DNA from: a bacterium
GTDB lineage: Bacteria > UBP15 > UBA6099 > JAJRTR01
Direction of reading: 5' to 3'
DNA length: 38,845 nt
NCBI GenBank assembly: GCA_024278215.1
Contig: JAJRTR010000182.1
Location: 62,001 to 100,845, forward strand
Shown: positions 4,984 through 38,845 of the stretch, piece after piece
Layout: each line of letters begins with the position of its first letter
Numbering within the stretch: the stretch's first letter is position 1
Notes under the pieces: generated by a model
What the model saw: the letters and a program-made list of their open reading frames with translations, nothing else
Told to the model about the DNA's origin: nothing
Databases searched by the model: none
Translations under genes and position numbers: made by a program

Positions 4984-5964
4984 TTACTCCATCATCTCGT
5001 CATAAAAGTCAACGAAGTTCGGGTTTTCGACAGTTTCCATCAGTTTCATGGCCGCCCTGGGATGATCGTTGAGAAGACCGGTGATCATGTACGGTATGTC
5101 AAACCCCCATTTCAGTTCGGCTCTCATGGGCTCGACCCATTTCTCAATCGCTTTTATGAGGGGGCGGAGTTTGAACTTGGGATTTCGCAGGAAGCCGATA
5201 AGAAGTTCTGTCTGGCAGTTGCCCGCGCCCCTGCCGAGGCCCGCAAAGCTGCCGTCAGCCATGCTCGCGCCGAAAATCAGCGATTCTGTTGTGTTCGCAA
5301 ACGCAAGCGACTGATTATTGTGCGCGTGAATACCAACATTTTTACGCCACTGCTTCGCGATATCGAGATACTGCGTCGTCAATCTTCGTATCTGCTCCGG
5401 GTAGAGGGAGCCGAAACTGTCGACTATGTATATTGTATTAACCGGGCTTTCCATCAGGGCGTTGAGCGCGTTTCTTATTTCGTTTCCCGAAACTTTCGAT
5501 ACGGCCATAATATTGATTGAAGTCTCATAACCTTTTACATTAGCGTCATTGATCATGTCGATGGCAAGCGGAATCTGGTGTATATATGCCGCGACACGAA
5601 TCAGATCGATAACACTTTCTTCACGCGGAATAATGTCCTCTTTGTAATCGCTCTTTTCGGCATCGGCCATTACTGAAATTTTCAGGTCGGTATCGTTGTC
5701 GCCCACGACTTTTCGGATATCTTCCTCGTCGCAGTGCTTCCAGGGGCCGAATTCCGACTTCGGAAACTGCGTTTTTGAGTTTTTATAGCCCATTTCCATA
5801 TAGTCGATACCCGCTTCGACACATGCGTCATACACAACTTTCACAAAATCATAATCGAATTTGTGGTTGTTCATGAGACCGCCGTCCCGTATCGTGCAGT
5901 CCAGCACTTTTATGTCGGACCTGAATGTCGTAAGATTTCCGATTGCCTGCTCCATGTTATCCAT
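4984..5964 (-). CDS. HMGL-like (DRE-TIM) aldolase, 4-hydroxy-2-oxovalerate aldolase-like
   Basis: LDCTIRDGG, IVDSFGS, GIHAHNN, GLGRGAGN motifs; start placed at ATG 5964 behind GGAGAAAAGGAA. Confidence 0.9.
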   Translation of the reverse strand: MDNMEQAIGNLTTFRSDIKVLDCTIRDGGLMNNHKFDYDFVKVVYDACVEAGIDYMEMGYKNSKTQFPKSEFGPWKHCDEEDIRKVVGDNDTDLKISVMADAEKSDYKEDIIPREESVIDLIRVAAYIHQIPLAIDMINDANVKGYETSINIMAVSKVSGNEIRNALNALMESPVNTIYIVDSFGSLYPEQIRRLTTQYLDIAKQWRKNVGIHAHNNQSLAFANTTESLIFGASMADGSFAGLGRGAGNCQTELLIGFLRNPKFKLRPLIKAIEKWVEPMRAELKWGFDIPYMITGLLNDHPRAAMKLMETVENPNFVDFYDEMME

Positions 5965-6093
5965 TTCCTTTTCTCCCAGTCTCGGTTGCCGGTCTGTGCG
6001 GATACTGTGCCGACCACACGGCAACATCATTGCATATTAAGCGTCTGACATTATAGCACAAACAACGGAAGAAAAGAAAAAATATATTATGAC

Positions 6094-8011: not shown

Positions 8012-9391
8012 TCAGACTCTGATCTTTATATCCCTCGTTTTCTCGTCCAGTGGATATTTCAGAAAGATAAAGAACCCGATGAGACCAAGAACGCCTGCGA
8101 TAGGACCGAGCAGACTGACCCCGAGATAGCAGTCCGGACCGCCGCATGTTGCCGAGGGCAGATTCTTTCCGAAATATTCGAACAGAACACCCTGCATACC
8201 CATGGACAAACCGGTCGCGATCTTTTGCAGAAGCCCCTGCATGCCGAAATACATGCCTTCGCGGCGGTGGCCGGAGATTTTTTCGTCATAGTCCGCTATG
8301 TCTGCAAGGATAGCCATGGGCATGACCTGGTTGATGGCTATGGGAATACTGAGCAGTGCCATGATAATGATGCCCGCTACTGTGGGGCTGACCGGCAGGG
8401 GGAAACGCCCCACGAAAAACATCAGTGGCATAATCACTGCCAGCAGCAACAATCCGACCTTGTACAAAAATGCTTTTTCAAACTTTTTTGTGAGCAGATT
8501 GATTACAAGAAACGAAACAGCGATGCCCGGAAAGAGTATGAGATAGACCGTGGTAACAAAACCCTCGGTCTGTCCCATGAGGCGGGTCACGATAAACGGG
8601 ATCGAGGCAGTGATGCACGCGAAACCCAGGTACTGAAAGATCGACGAAGTGATATAGACGCGAAACGCGGGGTTTTTCAGAGTCCAGGAAAACGACTGGA
8701 ACATGCTGTATGACTCTTCCTTCACGGTCGGCGAATGATCGTGCGTTTCCCGCACAGTGAAAGCCGTGATATAGATAAAAACAAACGCCATGCCGCCGGA
8801 AAAAAGCGCCGCATTGAAGTAGCCAAGGTACATTGATGATTTTACGTCGATGAATTTCGGAAGGATCATGCCCTGGAACGCCGTGGCGAGAAGCATGAAC
8901 ACGGCAAGATAAGTTGAAACCTGCACACGTTCGGCGTTGTCGGGAATCAGTTCCGGGTAAAGCGAAAGATACGGTCCCATAACCAGCGTGAAAAATATAT
9001 AAAACAGCCCCATGAGTACAATCGTATAAATGGTGATGGCCAGACTGCCTGCGGGAAATATCGGGTGGAACAGGAGGATGAATGTGAGAATAAGCGGGGG
9101 GGTGGCGAACAGCAGAAAAGGACGGCGACGCCCCCATCGGGAGTGGGTATTGTCGCTCCAGTAGGCCACCAGCGGGTCCGCGATCCCATCCACAAACCGA
9201 CCGAGCATGAATGCGATACCGAATACAGCGGACGATATGTAGACCTCATGCCCCGGGCCTCTGGTGGTATAGAAATACACCAGCCAACCGGTGCATACCA
9301 TGTTCACGATATTGCCGCCGAACTGACCGCTGCAATAAAGCATACTGCGACCGAAACCATAACGCTGATTCTGTGTCTTTGTATTGTTCAT
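8012..9391 (-). CDS. MFS transporter, glycoside-pentoside-hexuronide (MelB-like) family
   Basis: About 12 hydrophobic segments; DGIADPLVAYWSDNTHSRWGRRRPF and ADIADYDE..GHRREGMYFG signatures. Confidence 0.93.
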   Translation of the reverse strand: MNNTKTQNQRYGFGRSMLYCSGQFGGNIVNMVCTGWLVYFYTTRGPGHEVYISSAVFGIAFMLGRFVDGIADPLVAYWSDNTHSRWGRRRPFLLFATPPLILTFILLFHPIFPAGSLAITIYTIVLMGLFYIFFTLVMGPYLSLYPELIPDNAERVQVSTYLAVFMLLATAFQGMILPKFIDVKSSMYLGYFNAALFSGGMAFVFIYITAFTVRETHDHSPTVKEESYSMFQSFSWTLKNPAFRVYITSSIFQYLGFACITASIPFIVTRLMGQTEGFVTTVYLILFPGIAVSFLVINLLTKKFEKAFLYKVGLLLLAVIMPLMFFVGRFPLPVSPTVAGIIIMALLSIPIAINQVMPMAILADIADYDEKISGHRREGMYFGMQGLLQKIATGLSMGMQGVLFEYFGKNLPSATCGGPDCYLGVSLLGPIAGVLGLIGFFIFLKYPLDEKTRDIKIRV

Positions 9392-9531
9392 GAGATTCTG
9401 GTGTTCCTACATTCACCTGTTCAGCATAGCCTCTTGAGGGCGATTTTGCAACGACATGTTATCTATAAAGAAGTAATTGTGAACGCTGGAGCATTCAGTC
9501 GATGAGTTCACAAGATGAACCACAGGAATAC

Positions 9532-9566
9532 TTAGCCCGGATTTCTTTGTGAGAAATCCGGGCTAA
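9532..9566. repeat. palindromic repeat family B, between two co-oriented minus-strand genes
   Basis: TTAGCCCGGATTTCT-TTGTG-AGAAATCCGGGCTAA perfect 15-bp arms; near-identical copy at 16737-16771. Confidence 0.8.
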
Positions 9567-9599
9567 CCCATCTTGCGTCTTTTCTTTGTTGACAGGATA

Positions 9600-10592
9600 C
9601 TACAAATCATAGATGCCGCCGGCTTCGATCACTTCGACATCGGCGTCGAGTTCTTTGTCGAATCTCGCAAGTGCGCTGTCGCATGTGTCATGCGCCGACA
9701 GAAGCACACGTTTGGGCGCGGCTGCATTTATTGCCTCGATTGCGGCTCCCTGATCGTTCTCTGTTATACGTTCCCACGGCGGTTTCCCTGTTCCGAACAG
9801 CATCTGGAGCTGGATGCCGCCCTTGTTGCCTCTGCCGGTCGTAACCGGGAAATGCAATCCGCCACCTATAGCATATATCGGATCGTCTGTAAGTTTTTTC
9901 ACCATGTCGAGAATCACCTGTATCGTAGGGTGTACGCAACCTGTGAAAAGGACAATGCCTTTATCCTTTATCTTTGCGATTATCGACTGTTCTTCGCATA
10001 GTCCCAGCAAGAAAAGACTTCTGCACAGCGGTCCGGTCGAATATATGCCGCCTGCAAGATGTGTCGGTTTCGCAACTATCCGCTCGTCAAATCCCGGCGC
10101 TTTTGCGTCTTCCGGCAGGTAGCAAGGTTTCCCGTTTCCCTTGCTCAGGCTCGCTGGAATGCTCATTGTTTTTGACCGGCTCGCCTTCATGCCGCCGAAA
10201 TGATCGAGGTGAAGGTGCGAGATCGCCACTGCATCCACATCGTCGAGGCTGAAACCGAGTTTCTTCGCATTTTTTGCCAGTGTTTCCTGTTCTTCGCCGA
10301 AGCCGATATCAAAGAGCAGTGAACCACGGTCGGTGTTGAAAACATAAGATACACCCGCGCTCCTCTCGAATCCCGGGCGTGTCTTCCACTCGACGAGCGA
10401 CTTCAATTCAAATCTATCGAGTTCAGGCAGTTCGAGCTTCCGCGCTTCGGCTATCCTCTTTTTGTTAGTGCGTTCTACTTCGTTGCGTGTCTTCTCGAAT
10501 TTAATGTTTCTCAGTCCGAGCACCGGCACAAGTACGGGTGATGCCGCTGCGATCAGCGGCCAGAACTTCACTGGTATTCTTGTATTTTCCAT
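9600..10592 (-). CDS. metallo-beta-lactamase fold hydrolase
   Basis: LLFDIG, ISHLHLDHFGG (HxHxDH), TGCVHP, GGGLHF, SAHD; start placed at ATG 10592 behind AGAGGGG. Confidence 0.9.
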   Translation of the reverse strand: MENTRIPVKFWPLIAAASPVLVPVLGLRNIKFEKTRNEVERTNKKRIAEARKLELPELDRFELKSLVEWKTRPGFERSAGVSYVFNTDRGSLLFDIGFGEEQETLAKNAKKLGFSLDDVDAVAISHLHLDHFGGMKASRSKTMSIPASLSKGNGKPCYLPEDAKAPGFDERIVAKPTHLAGGIYSTGPLCRSLFLLGLCEEQSIIAKIKDKGIVLFTGCVHPTIQVILDMVKKLTDDPIYAIGGGLHFPVTTGRGNKGGIQLQMLFGTGKPPWERITENDQGAAIEAINAAAPKRVLLSAHDTCDSALARFDKELDADVEVIEAGGIYDL

Positions 10593-10671
10593 TTTAAAAC
10601 GCCCCTCTCCAATTTGTAAGGCCCTGGATTCCTCCAACACCATATCCACAACTAATCACCCTGTCCTTAAC

Positions 10672-10966: not shown

Positions 10967-13648
10967 ATGATTGAAATTCGGCTTCATCCTTCAGGCCGGC
11001 TTTTTCCTGAATCCTCGAACAGCAGCGCCGGCGATAATCTCGATTTCAGCAAGTTGAAGGATGTATTTCACTCCGACTGGCGCGAGGGTTTATTCTCGCT
11101 TGCCGCGGATACGGATATTGACACGGCGCACCTGTCGCCGACTGTGCGTTTCTGGCGCGATATTGCGGCCAATTACCTGACGAAATTGTGTCAGATACCC
11201 GGATCGGAGTCAGAAGTCGAGGTCGAGCCGCCTTCGGATTCCGATTTCGCGACATGGGTGCTTACCGCTCCTCCTATGGCAGGCGGCGAGTACCTTTCGG
11301 CGGCCATGATCGAGGGTGTCTGGAGTGCGCTGACACAGTGGGGCACAGAGCGTATTGCGGCAGCGGGCGGTGTGGAATCATTTCTGAAGAAACGCGCGAC
11401 CGGCTGGAATCGGGTCGGACGTGTAACTTTCCATCTTGCCGAGAATAAGAAGGACGAAGCGCGTCCATTCGCGTTTATGGCGAGTTTTACCACCGGCATC
11501 GGCACTGGTGGAAAATTGAAACACCTGCCTTTGCGCAAAGCACTTGAAATGTATGCTGGAACCGGCAACAAACAGGCATTGATAAAACTGTTGTCGCCGG
11601 TACAGAAAGCGGCGGAACGCTGCGAGTGGGTTCAGGAACTTGTGGAAAGCGGCGAGATATATTCGCCGATGGCCTGGACGCCGGAGCGCGCATACCAGAT
11701 GCTGCGCACAGCAACGGCGCTGGAGGAAAGCGGACTGTCTGTGCGACTGCCGGACTGGTGGAAGAAACGGCCCCGACCGCATGTGTCGGTGACTATCGGC
11801 GAAAAGAAACGTTCCTCGCTCGGCGCGTTGGAGACGCTTGATTTCGACATTGCCGTGGCTATGGGCGGCGAGCCTCTGTCGCAGGCCGAACTGAATGAAT
11901 TGTTGTCGGGCGGAGACGGATTGGTACTGTTCAAGGGGAAATGGATCGAAGTGGACAGTGACAGGCTGCAACAGGCGTTAGATCACTGGAAGGACATCGA
12001 GGCGAAGGCCGAAAACGGTGAATTATCGTTCATCGAGGGGATGCGGCTGCTTGCGGGCGCCCCGGTCGACCTCAAGCAGACCGGCGAGGTCGACGAAGAG
12101 CGGTCCTGGGCACATGTTTCCGCCGGCAAAGCTATGCGGGAAATGCTGAGCGGACTGCGCGAACCGTCGCGACTCGAACCGCTCGATACAGGCAATGTAC
12201 TGAACGCCACATTGCGTCCCTATCAGCGCGACGGCGTGTCATGGCTCCATTTTCTCACGGAACTGGGCCTGGGCGCGTGCCTGGCAGACGACATGGGACT
12301 CGGGAAAACTTTGCAGACACTCGCTCTGCTGGCCTGTCGCAGCCGTGGGCGGAAAGACGCACCGTCACTTTTAATCATCCCCGCTTCGCTGCTCGGCAAC
12401 TGGCGAAGCGAATCCGAACTTTTCACACCCACATTGAAATTGCTCATACTGCATCCTTCGGAAACCGACAAAGCTACTATGGCGAGAATCGAACAGTCGC
12501 CTGAAAAACAACTTGCAGGTTATGACCTTGTGATCACAACCTATTCCATGACACATAGAATCGAGTGGCTTGCGGACATACAGTGGCATCTCGTCATACT
12601 GGACGAAGCGCAGGCTATCAAAAACCATACTACACGCCAGAGCAGGGCGGTCAGGAAGTTTAAGGCAAACTCGCGCATCGCCCTGACCGGCACACCGATT
12701 GAAAACCGGATCGGCGACCTGTGGTCGCTCTTCGATTTTCTCAACCCCGGTCTGCTCGGTTCGGCGACGGTGTTCAAGAGATTTGTCAAGAGCCTCGAAG
12801 ACCGACCTCGCGACACTTTCGGCCCGCTACGCAAACTGGTCGGCCCCTACATACTGCGCCGCCTGAAAACCGACCGCAACGTCATCTCCGACCTGCCCGA
12901 CAAAACCGAAACCATACGCTACTGCTCGCTTACAAAGGAACAGGTCAAGTGCTACAAACAAACTGTGGATGCGCTGGCAGACGCACTGAAAACAAAAACC
13001 GGCATGGAACGTCGCGGCCTGGTTCTCCAGACACTTATGCGCCTGAAACAAATATGCAACCATCCCAGCCAGTTCAATGGCGACGCCGAATACGCACCCG
13101 GCAAAAGTGGAAAATTCACGCGCATCGGGAAAATATGCGAAGAACTCGCCGAACGGCAGGAAAAAGCGCTGGTGTTCACGCAGTTCCGTGAGATCATTCC
13201 CGCGCTCGACGAGCATCTCGCACGCGTTTTCGGCAGGCCGGGACTGGTTCTGCACGGCGGCACAAATGTGAAAAAACGTAAAAACCTCGTCGACCGGTTC
13301 CAGCAGGAAGACGGACCGCCTTTCTTTATCCTTTCATTAAAAGCAGGTGGCACCGGACTGAACCTGACTGCCGCTTCGCATGTCATTCACTTCGATCGCT
13401 GGTGGAACCCCGCCGTCGAAAATCAGGCCACGGACCGCACATTCCGCATAGGCCAGAAAAAGAATGTGCTCGTGCATAAATTCGTCACCACCGGCACCAT
13501 CGAAGAACGCATCGACGAAATGATTAACGAAAAACGCGAGCTTGCCGAACAATTGCTTTCCGGCAGCGGCGAGATCAAACTGACCGAACTGGCCGACGAC
13601 GAATTGATGCAGCTTGTCCGTCTGGATGTGTCACGTGCTACACGATAG
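10967..13648 (+). CDS. SNF2-family helicase/ATPase
   Basis: LRPYQ, LADDMGLGKT, LDEAQ, LTGTPIEN, SLKAGGTGLNLT, DRWWNPAVENQATDR..RIGQ. Confidence 0.96.
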   Translation: MIEIRLHPSGRLFPESSNSSAGDNLDFSKLKDVFHSDWREGLFSLAADTDIDTAHLSPTVRFWRDIAANYLTKLCQIPGSESEVEVEPPSDSDFATWVLTAPPMAGGEYLSAAMIEGVWSALTQWGTERIAAAGGVESFLKKRATGWNRVGRVTFHLAENKKDEARPFAFMASFTTGIGTGGKLKHLPLRKALEMYAGTGNKQALIKLLSPVQKAAERCEWVQELVESGEIYSPMAWTPERAYQMLRTATALEESGLSVRLPDWWKKRPRPHVSVTIGEKKRSSLGALETLDFDIAVAMGGEPLSQAELNELLSGGDGLVLFKGKWIEVDSDRLQQALDHWKDIEAKAENGELSFIEGMRLLAGAPVDLKQTGEVDEERSWAHVSAGKAMREMLSGLREPSRLEPLDTGNVLNATLRPYQRDGVSWLHFLTELGLGACLADDMGLGKTLQTLALLACRSRGRKDAPSLLIIPASLLGNWRSESELFTPTLKLLILHPSETDKATMARIEQSPEKQLAGYDLVITTYSMTHRIEWLADIQWHLVILDEAQAIKNHTTRQSRAVRKFKANSRIALTGTPIENRIGDLWSLFDFLNPGLLGSATVFKRFVKSLEDRPRDTFGPLRKLVGPYILRRLKTDRNVISDLPDKTETIRYCSLTKEQVKCYKQTVDALADALKTKTGMERRGLVLQTLMRLKQICNHPSQFNGDAEYAPGKSGKFTRIGKICEELAERQEKALVFTQFREIIPALDEHLARVFGRPGLVLHGGTNVKKRKNLVDRFQQEDGPPFFILSLKAGGTGLNLTAASHVIHFDRWWNPAVENQATDRTFRIGQKKNVLVHKFVTTGTIEERIDEMINEKRELAEQLLSGSGEIKLTELADDELMQLVRLDVSRATR

Positions 13649-28457: not shown

Positions 28458-29303
28458 ATGGCATATTGTGAGAACTGCGGAAATCCGCTTGGAGACAACG
28501 CTCAATTCTGTGTTAAGTGTGGAACAAAAAGACACACCGGGGAGCCGGTCCCTCAACCGGGGCCAATTCAAAACATCGAGACATTGCCTGTATCGCCGCA
28601 AGCGCAACAACCGCCACCGGGCGGGACACAATATCCACAATACGAAAAAGGCCCGACGACGGCGCAGAGAGGCGGCTCAAAACTATCCCTGTCCTCGGTA
28701 TGGGCATGGTTCCGGAAGCAGTCGAAGCCGGTACAGGCGGCGATTGTCGCGGGTATCGTAATACTCATTATTATCGGCGCGACAACGGAATCTCCCGATA
28801 CTCCTACGGGTAGTAATCCCTCCGGGACTACTACAACGGAGCTATCCCCGGAACAACGGCTCTCAAACGCCGAGGCGAAACTACAGGAGTACAAAGATTA
28901 CAAAGCTACCGTACTCGCGGCGTTCGGAGACTCGGACGCTTACGCAAAACGGCTCTACGACCAACTACAGGCGGGCGACATGTATAAGGCGTACGAGACC
29001 GCCGATAAGGGATATTGGGTAAACTTCGAGTTGGCGACGGAGAAATTACCAAAAATCAAACCTCCAAAGGAAATGAAATTGGCTCACGATAAATACGGGG
29101 AGGCCGCGCTATTCAGGCAAAACGCTATGAGGGCGTTTGTAAAAGCCGTAGACGCGAACGGCAAAACTAAACTCATGAAACAATACAAAGATAATGTCGA
29201 GTTCGCGTTTTCAGCATTGACCTCGGCGACAGCGGAAATGACTACCGTAATCGTCGAACAAGAGAAAAAAGTCGAGGAGCTTAAAATCTCGACAACCGAG
29301 TAA
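28458..29303 (+). CDS. zinc-ribbon, single-pass membrane protein with helical C-terminal domain
   Basis: MAYCENCG..FCVKCGT; Pro/Gln linker; TM AAIVAGIVILIIIGA; AGGAGG RBS. Confidence 0.9.
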   Translation: MAYCENCGNPLGDNAQFCVKCGTKRHTGEPVPQPGPIQNIETLPVSPQAQQPPPGGTQYPQYEKGPTTAQRGGSKLSLSSVWAWFRKQSKPVQAAIVAGIVILIIIGATTESPDTPTGSNPSGTTTTELSPEQRLSNAEAKLQEYKDYKATVLAAFGDSDAYAKRLYDQLQAGDMYKAYETADKGYWVNFELATEKLPKIKPPKEMKLAHDKYGEAALFRQNAMRAFVKAVDANGKTKLMKQYKDNVEFAFSALTSATAEMTTVIVEQEKKVEELKISTTE

Positions 29304-29321
29304 AGGCGAGAGGAGGTTAAA

Positions 29322-29738
29322 ATGGCATATTGCGAGAGTTGCGGAAACGAGCTACGAGAGGGTATCAAATTTTGCGGTAAATGTGGAACAAAGGTCGGGG
29401 ACGGGACACCTGCGACCGCACCCCCGGCGACCGCGCCTCCTCTCCGGGAAAGTCCTCCGAGACTACAACCGACCAGAGGACCGTCAATAGGAGACGGCGG
29501 TAAGGTTTACAAAGAAATACGATATACGTGTCAGTCTTGCGGGAACCAGTGGCACAGCTTACCGAGAGAGGAGAGCCTCGGAACAAAATGCGCGACGGCG
29601 GCGGTATGTCCCTGTTGCATAGGAGGCCCGCTTACTCACTTTTTCAAGGGTAAGGGCGGTGTCCCGCTTGAGCACTCCATGTGTAAGAAATGTCGTTCTC
29701 GGAATATCACGCGAGAAGAAATCGAGCACGTAAGGTAG
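29322..29738 (+). CDS. zinc-ribbon protein with second Cys-rich domain
   Basis: MAYCESCG..FCGKCGT; CQSC, CPCC, CKKC; AGGAGG RBS. Confidence 0.88.
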   Translation: MAYCESCGNELREGIKFCGKCGTKVGDGTPATAPPATAPPLRESPPRLQPTRGPSIGDGGKVYKEIRYTCQSCGNQWHSLPREESLGTKCATAAVCPCCIGGPLTHFFKGKGGVPLEHSMCKKCRSRNITREEIEHVR

Positions 29739-29748
29739 GAGGCGGGCA

Positions 29749-29961
29749 ATGGCGGCAAAGGCACTCATACGGCTTATACAATGGTATCAACGGCAGGTAT
29801 CACCCCGGCTCAATACCCGTTGTCGATTTCAGCCCTCGTGTTCTCAATACGCGATTTTAGCGATAGAGAAATATGGAGGCATAGTCGACATCGGGAAAAC
29901 GGCGTGGCGGCTCTGTCGATGCAATCCGTTTAATCAAGGGTCGTGTATAAACTTTCCTTAA
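29749..29961 (+). CDS. YidD-like (membrane protein insertion efficiency / haemolytic domain) protein
   Basis: LIQWYQRQVSP...CRFQPSCSQYAILAIEKYG...RLCRCNPF; AGGAGG RBS. Confidence 0.9.
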   Translation: MAAKALIRLIQWYQRQVSPRLNTRCRFQPSCSQYAILAIEKYGGIVDIGKTAWRLCRCNPFNQGSCINFP

Positions 29962-30184
29962 ACGTAATCACAAAACTACGACAATACGCCTCCGGGAAAG
30001 TATGGAGGACTCTCACAAAAGCAAGATATTTTTATTTGCATCGAAAAAAATCGAGGTCGACGGCGTAGAATTATATGAGAGGGAAAAATCGGGAGGAAAG
30101 GAAAGCAAGCATAATAAAACCTCTACGATACGGTCGATGGTACTACCCTTTCGGACAAAGGACTTTTGAACGGGAGGAGCCGAA

Positions 30185-30367
30185 ATGCTAAAGGAAAAGT
30201 TATTGACGGTAAAAGAAGCGGCCCGGTATTTAGACGTAAGCAAGGATTTCATTTACCGACGAGTTCAATATGAAACCGACGTGGTGAAAGTCGGTAGAGG
30301 AATCCGGTTTACGCTAAGGGCTTTGGAAAAGTGGGTTGCGAACAACACGGTAGCGGGGAGCGTTTAA
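30185..30367 (+). CDS. excisionase-like HTH protein
   Basis: LLTVKEAARYLDVSKDFIYRRV...KVGRGIRF....LEKWV; GGAGG RBS; directly before the integrase. Confidence 0.9.
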   Translation: MLKEKLLTVKEAARYLDVSKDFIYRRVQYETDVVKVGRGIRFTLRALEKWVANNTVAGSV

Positions 30368-30383
30368 TCGCGCTTCCCAACCC

Positions 30384-31607
30384 GTGAGGAAAGGGGGTGA
30401 TAACTTGTTTATACCGAAAGGGAAAAGGTATTGGTACTTCAATGTCTATGACGACATGGGGAAACAGCGGAAATTTTCCACGCGGGTTGAACCGTCCAAA
30501 CCGGGGGTTAAGTGGAGCGAGGAGAAAAAGGGCATAGTGAAAAAGGCGGAGGCGGCGAGAAGCCGGATACTTGCGGAAAAGGGTTACGGGACTCCCCGGT
30601 TTTCACAGGAACGGAAAGCCGTATCTTTCGAGGTCTTGTTCAACGAGTATTACGAACGCCACTCCAGGGTACACAAAAAGAGCCACCGGCACGACCTGTA
30701 CAAAGGACGACATTTATTGGAGGCGTTCGCGGGCGTCCGGGTCGATAAGATAACGCCCCTCGCGATTGAGCGATACAAGGCGAAACGACGGAAGGTAAGC
30801 GGCCCGGCGACGATAAACCGGGAACTCGCGCTCATCAAGCACATCTATACAAAGGGTATCGAGTGGGGGTACTGCCGGGAGAACCCGGCCAAGGGGGTAA
30901 AGCTATGCAAGGAGCCTCCATCCCGAAATATTACTCTCACAGACGACGAGCGTATGAGGCTCATAGAGAGTTGCGACCACCGAATCAGGCCCATTGTCCT
31001 TGTCGCTCTCCATACGGGCATGAGGCAAGGCGAGATTATGGGTATGCGTTGGGAGAACGTGCGGTTCAAAGGAGTTCCGTGTCCGCACATTTTACTCCCC
31101 GTTACAAAATCGGGTAAGCCCCGTGAAATTCCCATGAACCATATCGTTTATCAGGTCCTGTACGAGCAGCCGCGCAACGGCGAGAGGGTATTTAATCGGA
31201 GTTTCCCGCGCTACTCTTGGGAAAAGGCCGTACAGGAGTCGAGACTCAATGGGCTCCGGTTCCATGACCTCCGGCACGAGTTCGGGACGAGACTTGTGAA
31301 CAATGTTCCACTACCTCGTATCAAAGAGCTCCTCGGTCACTCGACAATCCAGATGACCATGAGCTACCTTCATACGACCTCTTTGGAGTTAAAAGAGGCG
31401 GTTGATTACTCGTGTGAGAACTCGCCGGAGTGGCGGAATTGGCAGACGCAGAGGGACGACATTGGTGCCCCTTTAGTGCCCCCAATCAATTCGGTTCATG
31501 TCTTCGCAGGCGGCACGAAAAACAAAAAAGCCCGCAAAAGCGGGCCGTTCACGATGCCGGAGACCGGGCTCGAACCGGTACGAGGGATAGCCCTCACGGG
31601 ATTTTAA
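30384..31607 (+). CDS. int: tyrosine integrase of element 1; ORF runs through the att site and stops in the anticodon-loop core
   Basis: SGPATINRE, HTGMRQGEI, TKSGK, RFHDLRH, LLGHS..MTMSY; start may be TTG 30405. Confidence 0.95.
   Translation: MRKGGDNLFIPKGKRYWYFNVYDDMGKQRKFSTRVEPSKPGVKWSEEKKGIVKKAEAARSRILAEKGYGTPRFSQERKAVSFEVLFNEYYERHSRVHKKSHRHDLYKGRHLLEAFAGVRVDKITPLAIERYKAKRRKVSGPATINRELALIKHIYTKGIEWGYCRENPAKGVKLCKEPPSRNITLTDDERMRLIESCDHRIRPIVLVALHTGMRQGEIMGMRWENVRFKGVPCPHILLPVTKSGKPREIPMNHIVYQVLYEQPRNGERVFNRSFPRYSWEKAVQESRLNGLRFHDLRHEFGTRLVNNVPLPRIKELLGHSTIQMTMSYLHTTSLELKEAVDYSCENSPEWRNWQTQRDDIGAPLVPPINSVHVFAGGTKNKKARKSGPFTMPETGLEPVRGIALTGF
31424..31457 (+). other. inverted 5' half of a tRNA-Leu inside the integrase 3' end
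   Basis: GCCGGAGTGGCGGAATTGGCAGACGC matches nt 1-26 of the neighbouring tRNA-Leu at 25/26, then AGA-GGGAC up to the anticodon loop. Confidence 0.85.
31524..31545 (-). terminator. intrinsic terminator of tRNA-Leu
   Basis: Minus strand GCCCGC-TTTT-GCGGGC-TTTTTT. Confidence 0.8.
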
Positions 31608-31640
31608 GTCCCGGGCGTCTACCAATTCCGCCACTCCGGC
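31555..31640 (-). tRNA. tRNA-Leu(TAA), CCA not encoded
   Basis: GCCGGAG/CTCCGGC acceptor stem, CGGGA-CTTAAAA-TCCCG anticodon arm, long variable arm GAGGG-CTAT-CCCTC, GGTTCGAGCCC T arm. Confidence 0.97.
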
Positions 31641-31843
31641 TTTTTAAAAATATCCTTTTGTTTAAGCCAATATTTGCTAACTTTACAATTGGTTTGCAGT
31701 AATCTATTTTGTGTTTCGCACAAATTCACCCTATTTATCTTAGCTTATGTGCGCTGAATTGAGAACAGATCGGTGAGATTTTCCAAATATTTGTTTGATG
31801 TGTTTTCTCCACGTCTTTATCGCGCATATTTCACCAATGCAGG

Positions 31844-31893
31844 CTAACCCGGCATAGCAGTAACCGAACAGGGTTTCAGTTGCGCCGGGTTAG
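31844..31893. repeat. inverted repeat with family B-like ends between the two tRNA genes
   Basis: CTAACCCGGC ... GCCGGGTTAG 10-bp perfect arms with a different interior. Confidence 0.55.
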
Positions 31894-31933
31894 GGAGGAT
31901 CCGCTTAAAGACGGAAAGATGTATACAGAATTC

Positions 31934-31962
31934 TTGACAACAGCAACCCTTCCCCCTATTAT
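31934..31962 (+). promoter_or_regulatory. sigma70 promoter of tRNA-Ala
   Basis: TTGACA 31934-31939, 17 nt spacer, TATTAT 31957-31962. Confidence 0.8.
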
Positions 31963-31974
31963 TCAATAGCACGA

Positions 31975-32047
31975 GGGGACTTAGCTCAGCTGGGAGAGCG
32001 CCGCCCTTGCACGGCGGAGGTCGAGGGTTCGAGCCCCTTAGTCTCCA
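31975..32047 (+). tRNA. tRNA-Ala(TGC), CCA not encoded
   Basis: GGGGACT/AGTCTCC acceptor stem with G3:U70; CCGCC-CTTGCAC-GGCGG anticodon arm; GGTTCGAGCCC. Confidence 0.97.
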
Positions 32048-32081
32048 TAACCAAGAAACACTGATAACTACAGGCTTTTTT

Positions 32082-32105
32082 GCCCCGTGGAGGGGCTTCC
32101 TTTTT
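32082..32105 (+). terminator. terminator-like hairpin after tRNA-Ala
   Basis: GCCCC-GTGGA-GGGGC-TTCCTTTTT. Confidence 0.55.
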
Positions 32106-32154
32106 GCCCTGTACCGGGCAGAAGTTAGCCAAGGTTAGACAAATCTTCACGTTT

Positions 32155-33174
32155 TCACTCCAGGAACGCCGCAATCTTCTTGTCACGTTTGTCACTCACG
32201 TGTGCGTAGATCATCGTGGTCATCGGGCTACTGTGACACAGGTAGTACTGCACGTCGTACAGGGTCGCATCTTTCTCAATCATCTCAGTTGCGCAGCGAT
32301 GACGCAACGCGTGGAACCGCCTGTCGGGGAGTCCGAGTTCTTCATCGACTTTATCCCGGACGCGCCGCCATGCAGCACGCGGGAAGTACGGGAACGGCTT
32401 GTCCTTGTTCTCGGACCTCAACTGGAACAGCAACTGGAAAACTGACTGCGGAGGCTTGCGGTAGTGTTCTTCAAGTCCGCCTTTCTTCTTACTAATCCAA
32501 TACTTGATGGTTTGTTTCCCGAAGTCAACATCCTTCCACTCGACTCTCAGAATCTCTTTCAGGCGTCGCCCCGTCTTCAGAGCGAAGAATACAATCGAGT
32601 ACAGGTATGAGCTTTCTTTCCTGGCCTCTTTAAGGATAGCATCTGTATGCTCAGCGGTGAGAAACTGCTTTACCGGGCGAGACGGATACGCCTTTGTCTT
32701 TGCCACTGGGTTCTTGGTGCAATACTCCCACTCGATGGCCCTGTTGAAGATTGCGCTTAGAACGTTGCGATACCTGTTCCAGGTGGTACCCTGGCGTGTC
32801 TTTACAACTTTGTTGTGGAACCTGCGGATGTCCAGGGGAGATATGTCATCCATCATCTTCCCGGAGAACTCCCTCTCGATCAGGTTCATTCGAGACTTGT
32901 CGATGGTGTAGTTCTCTTTGTACAGAGCAAAGACTTCATCAAACGACCGCGCCGGCAGTCGCTGTATGTCCAGGTCTTCGTCCGAGACCCGTTTCAGAAT
33001 GACTCTTTCGGCTTCTACTTTTATCGACTTCATCTCATTGTTCCACTTAATGCCTTTCTTCGAGGCTCTGACGCCGCTGGACAGCGTACGTCGAGAACCT
33101 TCTGACAGCTTGATCTTGCAGGCCCATAGGCCTTTTACTTGCCACCAATACACTAAATCACTTCCTTTCGTCAC
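32155..33174 (-). CDS. int: tyrosine integrase of element 2
   Basis: KTGRRLKEILRVEWKDVDF, RRFHALRH, YLCHSSPMTTMIYAH; start probably GTG 33174 or 33153 because longer starts overlap xis. Confidence 0.93.
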   Translation of the reverse strand: MTKGSDLVYWWQVKGLWACKIKLSEGSRRTLSSGVRASKKGIKWNNEMKSIKVEAERVILKRVSDEDLDIQRLPARSFDEVFALYKENYTIDKSRMNLIEREFSGKMMDDISPLDIRRFHNKVVKTRQGTTWNRYRNVLSAIFNRAIEWEYCTKNPVAKTKAYPSRPVKQFLTAEHTDAILKEARKESSYLYSIVFFALKTGRRLKEILRVEWKDVDFGKQTIKYWISKKKGGLEEHYRKPPQSVFQLLFQLRSENKDKPFPYFPRAAWRRVRDKVDEELGLPDRRFHALRHRCATEMIEKDATLYDVQYYLCHSSPMTTMIYAHVSDKRDKKIAAFLE

Positions 33175-33232
33175 CTCCCTTATACCGGAATGTACATTTA
33201 TTATCTCCGGCAAAGGGTTGCTCTGGCAAGGG

Positions 33233-33562
33233 TTAGTCAAATAACCGTCCCGTACGTTTTGCCTTTTCGATAAGGGAATCCAGTTCTTCCTTGGGCACCA
33301 GAATCCTGCGTCCGTGCTTAATCGTCCGGACGTGCGCCCGCATACGCGCATAGCCTTCAGTTGTACCAATGCCAAGATACGCGCAGGCCTCCTCCATGGA
33401 CAGCATTCGCTTCTGCGCAGCCATGGAATGGAGAATCTCCGTGAGTAGTTCTTCGATTCTGAACAGGGATTCTAAAGCGGTCGCAGCATGGGGCTGCTGC
33501 TGGTTCTCAGTGGTCGATACAGCCGTAGATTCTTGTTGATCCGAATGGGATGGTTGCTCCAT
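33233..33562 (-). CDS. excisionase-like HTH protein with N-terminal extension
   Basis: MLSMEEACAYLGIG....Y......IKHGRRILVPKEELDSLI; GAGGAG RBS. Confidence 0.88.
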   Translation of the reverse strand: MEQPSHSDQQESTAVSTTENQQQPHAATALESLFRIEELLTEILHSMAAQKRMLSMEEACAYLGIGTTEGYARMRAHVRTIKHGRRILVPKEELDSLIEKAKRTGRLFD

Positions 33563-33694
33563 AGGACAACGCTCCTCTTGCGTTGGCGTCGTCCCAGGTG
33601 GCGTTCAATGTCGAACGCGCGTGGACGTCTACCTGTTTCTCGGCACTGCGCTTTCAGGATTTGCCGTGCCGGTTAATATTGAACCGCCGTGGAC

Positions 33695-34933
33695 TTAACG
33701 GCGGAATTTCTGCTCACTTATCATGGTACCGTGGCGTTGCTGGAATTGCTGGTGACGTGTGTGCCACATGTCCAGCAGGCTCGGTAGTTTTACATGGCCG
33801 CACTTGACGGTGTTCCGGTCCCGCTTGCATAGTCCACGCATGACCTTCTTCCTGACCAGTACATCGAGGTCTTCGATCTGGTACGACACGTTGACGGCTC
33901 CAAAGTGACCGAGCCAGCCAGCGAAGATTTCACGTAGATCATCGCAGACCTCTTTCAGTTCACCGTGGGTATATTCGACCATCTTCTTAGTCACTTTTAA
34001 GTCCAGCTTTCCCACAGCCTTCTCCGATGCACGGACTCTGATCCAATCATCTTTCAGCATGATGTCGTATCCAAGAAACACAAAGCTATCGGCAGCATGA
34101 CGGAGGTGGGTCTTCGACTCCTTCTGCTCCAGCCCCACGTTTGCCAGAGATTGCGCTGAGAACTCACGCGCCAGGATTGCTTCTTGCTCTGTCATGCAAA
34201 AGACTATTATGTCGTCGGCATAGCGAATGAGTTTGAACCTGGCGGCGGTCATCTCACGGTCGTACCCGGTGAGATATATATTGCACATCAGAGGCGATAA
34301 TGGTCCGCCTTGGTGCAACCCCGAAAGGTTTGGTTCCTCTGGAGTGGTATCAAGCGGGGATCGCATTATCCGGTGAATAAGTTCGATGACCCTGGGATCG
34401 TTCACAATGTCGATGGACATATCAAGAACGGGTTGGTGTGGAATATTCGGAAAGCAGGCTGCAATGTCAGTTTCGAACACACACAAGTCGCCTTCCTTCA
34501 AGATGATGACGATCCTTTTCAGGGCCGTGAGTGGACCACGGTCTGGTCGAAACCCATGGCTGCAATCTTCGAAAGTTGGCTTGAACATCGGTTCGATCAC
34601 CTGCCGGATTGCCGTTCCAACCACGCGGTCGTAAACAGTCGGTATTCCCAGGATGCGACAACCATCTCGTTTCATGGCCTCGTGGATGGAAATCCTCACT
34701 GGCAGGCCAGTCACCTTGTCGAGAGGGACTTGTCTCACCGGGTCAGACCAGTACGACATCGCGAGTAGCTCTCGTTGGATTTGTGCGGCATAATGATCGT
34801 ACCGCTGTACAAACTTGGCTGCTGTCACACCATCGACACCTGCACCCTGGTTCTCATCACGTGCCCGCTTACGGACATGACAGAATGCACGACGGATGTT
34901 TTCCTTGCTGGCTATCTGTTCGAGTAAGCTCAT
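33695..34933 (-). CDS. group II intron-like reverse transcriptase with maturase/thumb domain, no endonuclease domain
   Basis: GAGVDG (RT0), RILGIPTVYDRV, SHGFRPDR, ETDIAACF, LHQGGPLSPLMCNIYL, RYADD, FVFLGY, AGWLGHF; start ATG 34933 (MSLLEQIAS). Confidence 0.95.
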   Translation of the reverse strand: MSLLEQIASKENIRRAFCHVRKRARDENQGAGVDGVTAAKFVQRYDHYAAQIQRELLAMSYWSDPVRQVPLDKVTGLPVRISIHEAMKRDGCRILGIPTVYDRVVGTAIRQVIEPMFKPTFEDCSHGFRPDRGPLTALKRIVIILKEGDLCVFETDIAACFPNIPHQPVLDMSIDIVNDPRVIELIHRIMRSPLDTTPEEPNLSGLHQGGPLSPLMCNIYLTGYDREMTAARFKLIRYADDIIVFCMTEQEAILAREFSAQSLANVGLEQKESKTHLRHAADSFVFLGYDIMLKDDWIRVRASEKAVGKLDLKVTKKMVEYTHGELKEVCDDLREIFAGWLGHFGAVNVSYQIEDLDVLVRKKVMRGLCKRDRNTVKCGHVKLPSLLDMWHTRHQQFQQRHGTMISEQKFRR

Positions 34934-35314
34934 AAGAAAGAAGGTGGCGACAGCCACCACCTGAATTGGGCGCAAGCTGCGGTCGGAGCCGGGAGCGTGG
35001 CCGGGCGCGTTTCTGTGCCCTGCTCAGGTGTTCTCTATACCCGCATGGCCTCGCTCTATGCGTGGACCGTGGCGGCGGCCTCCTACTGCTGTCTCCTACC
35101 GTATCCTCATCCAGGTGTATCAAAGCCCTATAGGCTCTGTACACTACTGCCCTTGCGGCTGGCTTACCACCATGATCGCAGTCTGCGATCACTGAACCTT
35201 GCGGCTCGTGGTGGGGGCATTCGGTAGTCTTGCGTAATGTTTTCCCGTACTCCTCTCGTTTTTAGTTTGTCTCTGCGCTGTTTTCTGTCATGGGCGGCGC
35301 GTGTTCCGGTGCTT
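34934..35314 (-). ncRNA. putative structured leader/ncRNA upstream of the RT
   Basis: Nested helices and a GCAA tetraloop on the minus strand; begins just downstream of an extended -10 promoter; boundaries inferred. Confidence 0.55.
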
Positions 35315-35320
35315 ACCTTC

Positions 35321-35329
35321 ATTATAGCA
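35321..35329 (-). promoter_or_regulatory. extended -10 promoter facing the leader-RT-xis-int unit
   Basis: Minus strand TG-C-TATAAT (plus strand ATTATAGCA). Confidence 0.65.
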
Positions 35330-36376
35330 AACGGGTTTCGAAGCTATTGGCCATTGAAAAGGCCTGTAACGATAGGCATATTTGTTTGCCCTGTATACTG
35401 ATACAGGTTGGTTGTCACAATGACGGCATAGTGCCCGTTGCATTGCCTTTGTCCAGCGACATGACGGAAACCGGAGACTTCTGTGGCTAATTCCTTGTCA
35501 AGGGGGTTAGGCAAATAAAGTTTCGGCAGCGTGTTCCGGCTATCTTCTTATTGCATGGCTATGCGTTGTACCGGGAAGCTCTGTCCTTCGCCGTGTTCAC
35601 CGTAATCAGATAGTCGGACGGGTAGTCTTCATCTCGGCATCTGCCGTGCCTCTGGGTGCCGACGTTGAGGTCTGATAACACTTCCCGTCACCCGCATAGT
35701 TCACAAGGACTACTATCCAGTGCCAGTCTGATGTACCCCATTTGGGGTGCTACCCCCACCTGCCAAATGCCATACACCCTTTACGGCTGCTGTCACGGAA
35801 CTGAATTCCGCTGTTCCCACAGGATTCCAGGCAGGGGAATTATTCCCGCTGGCCAGAGCCAACTAACCGGAATGACCAGTGTTCTTTTACGGTCTATGCA
35901 ACGTTATACGGGTTTGACACGTGTTTCCTTCCGAATCCGCTTGTTACTGGTTGCTTTCCGCTTCGATCCTATTGCAAAACAGGGGGTATCTGTCATATGT
36001 CACTATGCCCTGTACGGGGTCCTTTTCTGAGCGTTCCAACATGGTGTCAAAACTGTATATTGATGCATGGAAGGCACTGTTCCTGTATCTGACTACAGGT
36101 TTGACATGTGTCTGGCGGGCTGTAGCGTGGCACTGGACCTGTGCAGGGGTGCCTATGTTACACCATCAACGGGGCCAGTGCTATGCAACGTCTCTTTTAA
36201 TGTCCATAAAGAGCAGCATGGTGGCCGGACATAAGCACTGCCCGACCCCATGCAGAAAACTCAGGCATGGGAGCCGCGTGCATTTCCACATGCCCAATCA
36301 TTCAACAGTCCGAATGTATAAAACGGACCGGATTATGCTCTTTTTATGCTGTGGTTTCAGATAGGGAAAGTTGCCG

Positions 36377-36694
36377 TCAACGCAGTAGCAAGTTGACTTT
36401 CTGCTGTAGTTCGTACTGCATGTCGGAGTCTCTCAGACGTCTGTAGAACCCTTCAATGAAAAGGTCCTTGTCCGGCACGCCACCGAATTCCTCAATGAAT
36501 TCGGCAGTCTGATACTCGGGCCATATATCGTCGAAGTAATCCGAAGATATCTCATGCCCGTGCGCAGCTTTGGTGAGTTCACCGAAGTCAGTGCAGTTAT
36601 CAGGCCATTCGTCTGCGAACTCTTCACCAAGCCCAAGATTACGCTCAACGTAATCTCCTGCGGACCGCGACAATGCGTCGTCTCTGTTTCTCAT
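36377..36694 (-). CDS. acidic hypothetical protein, paralog 3 (105 aa)
   Basis: AAGGAG RBS before ATG 36694; shares DxGELTKAAxGHxIS and FGGVPDK..F.EGF with 36738-37049. Confidence 0.85.
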   Translation of the reverse strand: MRNRDDALSRSAGDYVERNLGLGEEFADEWPDNCTDFGELTKAAHGHEISSDYFDDIWPEYQTAEFIEEFGGVPDKDLFIEGFYRRLRDSDMQYELQQKVNLLLR

Positions 36695-36737
36695 AATGGC
36701 AATCTCCTTTCCGTGCAGTCCATGTGCACGATTCGTG

Positions 36738-37049
36738 TTACGACTGTTGCAGATCGAGAAGTATTCCGCATGCTCGGTCTCGCAGGTCATCCAGTTTGTT
36801 GTTGAAGCCTTCAAGGAATGCTCCCTTGTCGGGCACCCCGCCGAAGTCTTCCACAAATTCCTTCCGGCTCAGTTCATCCCAGATATACTCCGGGATATCC
36901 GATATAGGATGTCCTGCGGCGGCTTTCGTCAGTTCGCCGTAGTCGTTGCAATCCTCAAGCCATGGCCCGGCGTATTCTGGTCCGAGGTTACGACTCTGCT
37001 CCATGAACTCGTCCATGGATTCGATCAGGGTCTGTGTCCTGTTGGTCAT
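36738..37049 (-). CDS. acidic hypothetical protein, paralog 2 (103 aa)
   Basis: AAAGGAGGTG RBS before ATG 37049; paralogy with the downstream gene, with many synonymous differences. Confidence 0.87.
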   Translation of the reverse strand: MTNRTQTLIESMDEFMEQSRNLGPEYAGPWLEDCNDYGELTKAAAGHPISDIPEYIWDELSRKEFVEDFGGVPDKGAFLEGFNNKLDDLRDRACGILLDLQQS

Positions 37050-37136
37050 GTCAACACCTCCTTTCCCGTTAGGTTCATGATGATCTATTCCCTCCTCAAA
37101 CACCCATCCAGCGCATGAGATTTCTGGCTGACACTC

Positions 37137-37457
37137 TCACTGATCAGACTCGCGCAGGTCTTCCAGAGTCTCCTTTATCTCAGGGTACAAGTCGTCGAGG
37201 CCCAGCTCGATACCGATACAAACATGATCGAAGTCAGGTCGTCGTCCATGCTTGGCAATGAAGTCTTCCAGTAGTCCATAAAGCTCAAGATCATCCATTG
37301 TGTTTTCATGAACAATAGCTCCTGCACCTTTCAATGCGGCCTGATGCCAATCTTCGTCGTCCTGATGTTCTTCGAACATAGTCCGTGCGTAATTGAAACC
37401 TATCTCCTCACAGTCCATCATGAATGCAAACTGCTTATCTGTTTTCTGCTGTTCCAT
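37137..37457 (-). CDS. acidic hypothetical protein, distant paralog 1 (106 aa)
   Basis: DFIAKHGRRPDFDHVCIGIELGLDDL aligns without gaps to EFVEDFGGVPDKGAFLEGFNNKLDDL; similar length and charge. Confidence 0.75.
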   Translation of the reverse strand: MEQQKTDKQFAFMMDCEEIGFNYARTMFEEHQDDEDWHQAALKGAGAIVHENTMDDLELYGLLEDFIAKHGRRPDFDHVCIGIELGLDDLYPEIKETLEDLRESDQ

Positions 37458-37835
37458 TGTGTTCTGCGTGCTGTGTTTTTCCTTTCCAAAAGTTAAAAAC
37501 GACTCTCTCCTCTTTTTCGTCTATCAGGCGCACAGCCCCGATGCCGCTGCAGCCCCTGACCGTGTACTGCCTGCCGCTGGCCGCTGTTCCATGTTCTGGG
37601 TTTACCTCCTTTCTTCACCTTGAACTTTTCCCTTATCTCAACTGACCTTCTATCGAACCGTAGGCAAGAGCTTCTGAACTGAACAGCTACAGTGCTCTTC
37701 TATTACCGATGTACTATTAATGACTATATCCTCTTCAAAACGTTCGTCAGAGCTACAGCTATAGACTGTTGTACTGCATGTTGTATACTGTAAAGATAGG
37801 TTGTACGAAAACGTTGAGTAACTTCTGGAGCGTTC

Positions 37836-38600
37836 ATGCCTGGAAAGACACAAAAAGCTATACTCAATGCCCTGGTTAGACGGCCCAATGGAGTGAGACT
37901 TCAGGCATTATCTGAGGAACTTGGGATTGATGCCAGAATCCTGAACCCGCCGATTGCTCGGCTGGAGAAAGCAGGATATGTTGAGCGATTCAAGGGAACA
38001 TACAGAAAGAAGCAAAAACAGTACGTCAAGATAACAAAACCAAAAGGGCGAGACTTTCTTAGATACGGAAAGGATAATTCAACGTTTTTATCGGATCCGT
38101 CTGGTTACCGAGGGGTGTCGGTTTACAGGGAATCATTGGAATTATGGGAGGCTCTAAAGTTTAAGAAGGTTACCGTTGGACACGGGGAACGAGAGATATG
38201 GGACAAAGAGGAGAAGGTTAAGAAGACAATCCCCTTCATTAACCGGAAGCGTCCTATCAACATAGCCTTGAGAGACTTTGTGGATAAGTACAAGAACGTA
38301 GACATGTTTTTCACGCCAGCGGAGACATGGGTGGGAAAAGGGAGCGTATTGAATTTTATTCGTTCACACTGTTTATGGTTTTCATCTGATCTCCCACTGA
38401 ATAATAATGACCAACCGCTAACGGCAGTTAAAAGACATAGCATCATCGTTTCAAAGACACAGAGACTCATCAAGGATGAGCTTCATCCTTTCGCAATTAT
38501 TGAATCAGGATATGACTTTCATGTTTTGCTTATGGTGCAGAACTATATGAAGAATGATAAACGGTTAAATTTCAGGACTCCTGACCTGGGAGAAGGGTAG
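37836..38600 (+). CDS. winged-helix protein with a degenerate RepB/AEP primase-like C-terminal domain
   Basis: N-terminal ILNAL...LQALSEELGID...IARLEKAGYVER wHTH; C-terminal DMFFTP, CLWFSSD, PFAIIESGYDFHV, RLNFRTP; GGAG RBS. Confidence 0.7.
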   Translation: MPGKTQKAILNALVRRPNGVRLQALSEELGIDARILNPPIARLEKAGYVERFKGTYRKKQKQYVKITKPKGRDFLRYGKDNSTFLSDPSGYRGVSVYRESLELWEALKFKKVTVGHGEREIWDKEEKVKKTIPFINRKRPINIALRDFVDKYKNVDMFFTPAETWVGKGSVLNFIRSHCLWFSSDLPLNNNDQPLTAVKRHSIIVSKTQRLIKDELHPFAIIESGYDFHVLLMVQNYMKNDKRLNFRTPDLGEG

Positions 38601-38845
38601 AAAAGAGGGCATGGCGAGAGAGGCACACAAAAAAGCGTATGAATAAAGGAAAAATGTCGAGTGGAGAGAAAGATAACAAAATATGACGGGACGCTACAAA
38701 GGGAAAAAAGATATGATACAATATAGGGAACACATACAGCAGTGAGTGGGGGAAGATATGCCACAGATGATATTGCCGTTGTTTCCGGCGGAGGCCACCG
38801 CGATTAATGAACATCTGGCGTTCTGTAAAAAAGACGGCCAGGTAT

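Follow-up and report, generated by a model that had tools for sequence, protein, structure and literature searches.

[quoted passage not shown] The leader covers positions 35329 to 34934 of a bacterial DNA stretch of 38,845 nt, which was analysed as a whole and is called the window here. An earlier note on this DNA had described a promoter-driven, multibranched RNA of ~380 nt and had proposed it as the cognate RNA of the RT. We tentatively favor, by analogy with other RT systems and short of calling it probable, the reading that the leader is a functional RNA that would be produced in excess through termination ahead of the RT start codon, with the RT made by read-through, and that the enzyme would bind it through the 132-nt domain and possibly use it as a template. 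Such a partner RNA is plausible, and the alternative of a leader with a regulatory role only is almost equally likely.

The reverse transcriptase and its lineage

The RT (33695-34933, minus strand) is a group II intron-like protein of 412 aa with YADD and QGxxSP motifs, and its YADD active site is intact in the alignment with the RT of G003, a genome that carries a relative with 52% aa identity. Profile comparisons gave 6.9e-27 for RVT_1, 19.9 bits for GIIM (under its cutoff of 23) and 236.5 bits for the group II RT/maturase model TIGR04416 (under its cutoff of 300). The closest solved structures are the group II intron RT/maturases 7uim (118 bits) and 6ar1 (114 bits), the label of class IIC being found in the molecule name for 6ar1 (GsI-IIC RT) only. 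The RT core and thumb align to the solved intron RTs over residues 1-369, including an alignable domain X/thumb region, and the C-terminal part of the solved enzymes beyond about residue 350 of 427-428 stays unaligned. Under the operational definition of Simon and Zimmerly, as given in the available part of PMC2602772, the protein is a group II intron-like RT.

Membership in the other RT groups considered was rejected on profile scores and motifs. The retron RT profile NF038233 returned 35 bits against a cutoff of 235, and the scores with the profiles of the DRT2, DRT9 and DRT10 groups were 40 bits (Drt2), 56 bits (Drt9) and 116 bits (RT_UG17). The last of these matches is generic, because RTs of other loci outscore the window RT with the same profile: four confirmed intron RTs reached 121-155 bits, and two loci without an Rfam match reached 156 and 189. 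DRT10/UG17 membership was rejected on this ground and because the SLATT family was absent among the 10 ORFs scanned (30384-38600) and among nine neighbors of the G003 RT. The G2L4 RT (PDB 9d4s/9d5x) gave 41 bits, versus 118 for an intron RT, and the abstract of 10.1101/2022.03.14.484287 gives YIDD as the G2L4 motif where the window RT has YADD, so that a G2L4 assignment was likewise discarded. Judged by its sequence, the RT is outside every RT family known for the use of an adjacent ncRNA.

Among 1.84 billion representative proteins, the lineage is confined to three clusters. Only P0002 (52% identity, 438 bits) and P0121 (43%, 299 bits) rose above the bulk of intron RTs, which score 171 bits at most, and in a quick tree, from which two rows with internal stops had been dropped, the RTs of the window, G003 and P0121 form a clade with an SH-aLRT of 99 and a long stem. 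The gene is single-copy in a genome that is 95% complete, and it is present in two of the 13 genomes of its phylum. Genome contigs held 80 RT-related loci, L012 alone being close, and metagenome contigs held one; none of the 22 loci on viral contigs was close to the RT, and none was found there for P0121. The loci L003, L012 and L092 are identical DNA and make up one relative, that of G003. P0121 lies on a Logan contig and P0002 on an ENA contig, each of 2.2 kb, and the comparison of leaders given below covers the window and G003.

Folding of the leader

All of the complementary segments that the earlier note had listed are present at their places on the minus strand. The putative transcript begins with an A-rich, unstructured segment (35314-35228, minus strand; MFE -5.9 kcal/mol) that has less structure than its shuffles (z = +1.72; 199 of 200 fold at least as well). 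Then comes domain 1 (35227-35096, minus strand), a multibranched fold that is closed by the pairing of CTACCG (35227-35222) with CGGTAG (35101-35096) and holds, on the same strand, hairpin A, GAGCC-GCAA-GGTTC with a GCAA loop (35207-35194), hairpin B, TGATCGCA-GAC-TGCGATCA with 8 bp (35191-35173), and hairpin C, in which GTGTA (35144-35140) pairs with TACAC (35119-35115). When the domain was folded by itself, ensemble pair probabilities were ~1.0 for the closing stem, 1.0 for GAGCC/GGUUC of hairpin A and for AGAGCC/GGCUUU, 0.66-1.0 for UGAUCGCA/UGCGAUCA and ~0.85 for GUGUA/UACAC. The inner stems CCACCA/UGGUGG (0.12-0.38) and UGCCC/GGGCA (0.18-0.23) were weaker, against overall values of about 0.85-1.0 for the stem that closes the domain and for its hairpins A, B and C. 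An exact repeat pair, AGCCGCAAGG, at 35206-35197 and 35160-35151 (minus strand, 46 nt apart) flanks hairpin B, and the chance expectation for such a pair within 132 nt is, by a rough estimate, ~0.01.

Compared with dinucleotide shuffles, domain 1 has a z-score of -5.49, and none of 200 shuffles was equal or better; the plus strand of the same segment reached -2.92, so that the RT strand is favored. When 34815-35754 was scanned with a sliding frame of 130 nt, the domain stood out as the sole peak on the minus strand, and it is retained in both the MFE and the centroid structure of the full-length fold, in which the 5′ and 3′ ends of the leader pair weakly. Its boundaries had been chosen by the author of the note after the stems were seen. 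A background scan of 132-nt minus-strand windows, with 30 shuffles per window (planned over 1-24750 and covering it to 24619), gave a mean z of -0.32 (sd 1.17) with 2 of 374 windows at z <= -4.6, which places domain 1 in the extreme tail without making it unique. Other strong minus-strand folds in 132-nt windows are found at 9439-9636 (z -4.78 and -3.91) and at 1651-1782 (z -4.67), the former sitting between ORFs 9600-10649 and 8012-9391 with no Rfam match.

The full 396 nt gave a z of only -1.27, with 11 of 100 shuffles as good. As only domain 1 stands above chance, the supposed ~380-nt multibranched RNA is properly described as one robust 132-nt multibranched domain in a leader that is otherwise unremarkable. 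The 3′ segment (35095-34934, 162 nt) has a z of -1.07 on the RT strand, where 30 of 200 shuffles fold as well, and of -3.0 to -3.3 on the opposite, plus strand. It includes a second region (34960-35090) that forms a long irregular hairpin, more stable on the plus strand (MFE -66.9 kcal/mol, z -3.0 to -3.4, versus -47.1 kcal/mol and z -1.07 on the minus strand), where its fold contains six G-U pairs that correspond to C-A on the RT strand. The stems CGCAT/ATGCG and CACCTGA/TCAGGTG that had been proposed here do exist as complementary segments, but this long hairpin competes with them and the opposite strand folds better.

Promoter and terminator signals

An extended -10-like element, TGCTATAAT, can be read at 35329-35321 (minus strand). 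The promoter that had been claimed is present to this extent, but it has no -35 match, which is why a promoter consensus scan omitted the site. TGNTATAAT is found twice in the 38.8-kb window, where chance would give 0.73 copies and where 16 of 100 shuffles contain two or more. The other copy precedes the start codon of ORF 4984-6030 by 20 nt; since both copies are intergenic and upstream of a gene on the same strand, both are in promoter positions. Sigma-70-like promoters (35 versus 17.4 expected) and intrinsic terminators (39 versus 24.8 expected) are enriched in this genome. Within domain 1, the stretch 35162-35180 is 79% identical over 19 nt to the promoter stretch 35311-35329 and reads TGCGATCAT on the minus strand where the promoter has TGCTATAAT; a second start site may lie there.

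At the other end of the leader, the hairpin GGTGGC-TGTC-GCCACC (34958-34943, minus strand) is followed by TTCTTTCTT and then by the ATG at 34933. The hairpin with its U-tract (34958-34934) scored as terminator-like and ends 9 nt before the RT ATG. A GC-rich hairpin over the stop codon of the RT (33684-33704, listed on the plus strand, its complement being read on the minus strand) is a possible endpoint for the transcript that carries the RT.

The position of this terminator-like hairpin raises the hypothesis that the leader is a regulatory element acting in cis, with the hairpin and U-tract as a transcription attenuator, or as an operator for translational autoregulation by the RT, and with domain 1 as a sensor or stability element, the RNA being neither a template nor a stable partner of the enzyme. 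We rate this only slightly below the partner-RNA reading. A hairpin this close to the ATG, at 9 nt in the window and 10 nt in G003, is just as compatible with a leader that regulates in cis. Since no space is left for the RT to have a promoter of its own, it would have to be translated from transcripts that contain the leader, and the 3′ strand of CACCTGA/TCAGGTG overlaps the extended terminator stem (AGGTGG..CCACCT), so that alternative folds are possible. Group II intron RTs, the closest solved relatives of the window RT, autoregulate their translation at a DIVa stem-loop that overlaps their own start codon. Against the hypothesis, G003 has no comparable overlap of its second domain with the terminal hairpin, no ligand or sensor family was matched in Rfam at E <= 10, and a leader of 320-380 nt with domains of 130 nt is large for an autoregulatory operator. 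Regulation would also be compatible with an RNA partnership, the two not being mutually exclusive.

The leader of the G003 relative

The corresponding leader in G003 is a non-coding stretch of 325 nt with a z of -3.78, none of 100 shuffles folding as well. It is preceded by a promoter-like site, TTGACA-16-TATCAT, that has 11 of 12 consensus matches and is the best in the region, and it consists of a multibranched first domain of 133 nt (z -3.28; antisense -1.30), a second domain that is a long hairpin of 136 nt (z -4.54; antisense -3.07), and a terminal hairpin and U-tract that end 10 nt before the ATG. Relative to the ATG, domain 1 occupies about -294 to -163 in the window and about -306 to -174 in G003. 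Both loci have their parts in one order, from a promoter-like site through ~320-380 nt of leader to a hairpin and its U-tract. This similar arrangement, seen in two sequences, is the chief argument from comparison for a functional RNA.

The likeness does not extend to the sequence. Between the window and G003, blastn showed no leader similarity outside the ORF, the 7- and 8-mers common to both leaders were at chance level, and a MAFFT alignment of the two was uninformative. A covariance model built from the window domain 1 alone (R1) matched neither the G003 leader nor anything in the phylum's 12 other genomes, and the leader DNA itself had no match in those 12 genomes either. When positions 32000-38845 of the window were compared with the 7-kb G003 locus by tblastx, the RT was the sole common item, and the two loci thus share no conserved protein partner. 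The repeat pair of domain 1 is not a conserved trait, as the repeat pair of G003 (8 nt, 57 nt apart) sits in the second domain. The portion of PMC9226505 that treats UG2 describes ncRNAs without conservation between groups, and by this precedent the dissimilarity of the two leaders weakens the partner-RNA reading without excluding it. In favor of a cognate RNA stand the 5′ adjacency, the intact RT, the similar layout in G003 and the restriction-modification islands around both loci, and against it the absence of a shared sequence or a model match.

Two U-rich 13-mers bracket the G003 leader, at its 5′ start (L003 1184-1196) and just before the ATG (L003 1489-1501). The first domains of both leaders hold a mini-ORF, MPPPRAARFSDRRLRSWW at 35220-35164 (minus strand) in the window and MNTDKMYYQGFRAW at L003 1270-1314 in G003, each of which ends in one or more Trp codons before the stop. 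Neither has a Shine-Dalgarno sequence, and both are probably due to chance. A coding leader was rejected for the same lack and because tblastx of the two loci showed no conservation in the leader.

The comparison also bears on the idea that the leader has no RNA function at all and is simply an ordinary long spacer that separates divergent genes in a mobile island, one GC-rich segment of which happens to fold well. The z of the whole region and the two background windows as extreme as z <= -4.6 are what such an origin would lead one to expect, as are the lack of conservation in sequence or model and the setting of the domain boundaries after the stems had been seen. We nevertheless regard it as quite unlikely, for G003 repeats the same order of parts with significant folds, domain 1 favors the RT strand, and promoter-like and terminator-like sites stand at opposite ends of the region.

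Search for intron RNA and other RNA systems

Over the whole window, Rfam returned two tRNAs only, and at E <= 10 it gave nothing relevant in 33300-35700, neither a ligand or sensor family nor a group II RNA. In particular, domain V/VI (RF00029) and the group-II-D1D4 families had no match at this threshold in 33300-35700 of the window or in 2300-5000 of L012. With the same library, intron RNA domains were found in 13 of 16 loci of ordinary RT relatives, and RF00029 in nine of the 16. The control loci without an intron match were L013, L014 and L016, and as L013 and L014 show GTGCG upstream, Rfam is not exhaustive for intron classes. Reading of the 133 nt downstream of the RT revealed no domain V-like hairpin. 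A mobile group II intron was rejected on the missing domain V/VI and D1-D4 matches and on the single copy.

Two further element types were considered and set aside. A diversity-generating retroelement was dismissed because 29000-38845 holds no direct repeat of at least 30 nt of the TR/VR type. A retron-like cDNA hairpin in the 3′ region was rejected because the antisense folds as ssDNA are modest (z -1.86 and -2.57) and because the second domain of G003 favors the sense strand.

The affinity of the RT to intron enzymes suggested another origin for the leader, namely that it is the decayed 5′ ribozyme remnant (domains I-III and IVa) of an ancestral group II intron, without an RNA function of its own and kept for its promoter and translation signals. 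The RT is closest to solved intron RTs (118 and 114 bits) and to annotated ones, the leaders measure 381 and ~320 nt, lengths that the 5′ RNA portion of a small bacterial intron can also have, and Rfam does not cover every intron class. The remnant hypothesis appears improbable to us, however, because neither locus gave a D1-D4 or domain V match at E <= 10, the 133 nt behind the RT have no domain V-like hairpin, and neutral decay, at 52% aa identity between the RTs, is not expected to leave z-scores of -3.3 to -5.5 in both leaders.

Genomic context

The RT is followed in the same orientation by genes for an excisionase-like HTH protein and for a tyrosine integrase, the latter beside a tRNA gene (31975-32047), the last 42 nt of which recur exactly on contig C16 at 12444-12485 (L125). 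This second copy is probably the far end of an integrated island, and on the C16 side are encoded type I HsdS and HsdM, an ORF6N/Rha-like protein, a PD-(D/E)XK nuclease, DUF932 and a GemA-like protein. In G003, a DUF3800 gene and, at a distance of less than 3 kb, a type III Mod/Res pair are located just upstream of the leader and RT. Synteny of G003 with two congeners starts ~600 nt beyond the RT, which leaves leader and RT outside the syntenic block. The tRNA-bounded island in the one genome and the non-syntenic block in the other indicate that both cassettes are cargo of variable islands with defense genes. Defense RTs that depend on an ncRNA occur in variable islands with restriction-modification genes, and by this analogy the island location gives circumstantial support to a defense-type RT.

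Another tyrosine integrase gene, on the plus strand at 30384-31607, runs into the 3′ part of a second tRNA gene (minus strand, 31555-31640), so that two islands may abut the tRNA gene pair, and a 44-nt inverted match of 70% joins the two integrase genes. In G003, a segment of ~230 bp (L126 10962-11200) lies 290 nt downstream of the RT and is repeated many times in five related genomes with ~68-94% identity; it resembles a small, non-autonomous repeat element situated where the island ends.

A candidate partner RNA of the reverse transcriptase

If the leader is a partner RNA, transcription would start ~7 nt downstream of TGCTATAAT, near 35314, and the RNA would comprise in order the A-rich unstructured 5′ end, domain 1, the less defined second region and the hairpin with its U-tract. 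Most transcripts would end at the hairpin before the ATG and release a free RNA of ~370-380 nt, and read-through past this hairpin would yield the mRNA of the RT. The enzyme could then bind domain 1 as a scaffold and might copy part of the RNA, as in retrons and class 2 DRT systems. Several results were counted against the partner-RNA reading: the full leader folds like its shuffles and its 3′ half folds better on the opposite strand, the RT belongs to none of the families known for an adjacent ncRNA, model R1 found no match, and two of 374 background windows are comparable to domain 1. The cassette as a whole, a promoter, a structured RNA and an intron-less RT derived from group II introns, carried in variable defense islands, is offered as a possible description, with reserve.

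A bolder version of the proposal would be that the locus represents a new ncRNA-dependent RT system that descends from a group II intron RT and has an origin separate from those of retrons and the UG/Abi RTs. Domain 1 would serve as scaffold and template, the two AGCCGCAAGG copies would allow repeated re-annealing and so give repetitive cDNA as in DRT2 and DRT10, and the terminator would keep the ncRNA in large excess over the RT. We consider this improbable; a template-jump mechanism is hinted at by nothing but the AGCCGCAAGG pair.

RTs with an adjacent ncRNA are, to our knowledge, known so far from retrons and UG/Abi defense RTs. If the bolder proposal were true, the exchange of the ribozyme for another structured RNA would make a third independent origin of the RT-ncRNA arrangement, and would trace a route for the domestication of a selfish intron enzyme. 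As the lineage is very rare and lies in restriction-modification islands of a small uncultured phylum (13 species genomes), any activity would be new biochemistry, and the RT would then be a possible tool enzyme. If the leader were merely regulatory, the result would be a modest note on the expression of an orphan RT. The titles and abstracts searched describe no ncRNA upstream of a free-standing RT of the group II-like kind, which does not prove that none exists.

Comparison with known systems

The G2L RTs offer the nearest comparison. According to the available part of PMC2602772, they are, like the window RT, closest to group II RTs and occur without a detectable intron RNA or domain V, and for the G2L classes this part mentions no structured leader of the kind found here. 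From G2L4 in particular the window RT differs in its YADD. It has neither a Cas1 fusion nor an adjacent Cas1, and its lineage forms a clade of three of its own. Mobile group II introns likewise have an RNA of several hundred nt before the ORF, and their RT core and thumb align with those of the window RT; unlike them, the window locus is single-copy and has no domain V/VI or D1-D4 match.

In retrons the ncRNA stands directly ahead of the RT gene and in its orientation, as the leader does in the window, and the long hairpin in the 3′ region of the leader, which also folds as antisense ssDNA (z -1.86), is a further likeness. A typical retron msr-msd is shorter than the window leader, beside which no flanking a1/a2 inverted repeats were noticed. 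The class 2 DRT systems differ in that the window RT is not of the UG/Abi lineage and has no SLATT family among the neighboring ORFs scanned. Their ncRNAs are poorly conserved between subgroups in the accounts accessible in PMC9226505 and 10.64898/2026.04.29.721553, and the relevant part of PMC9226505 places those of UG2 and UG28 5′ of the RT, with a read coverage far above that of the RT mRNA. DRT2/UG2, DRT9/UG28 and DRT10/UG17 share with the window locus a stand-alone RT behind a sizable structured non-coding region, in defense islands.
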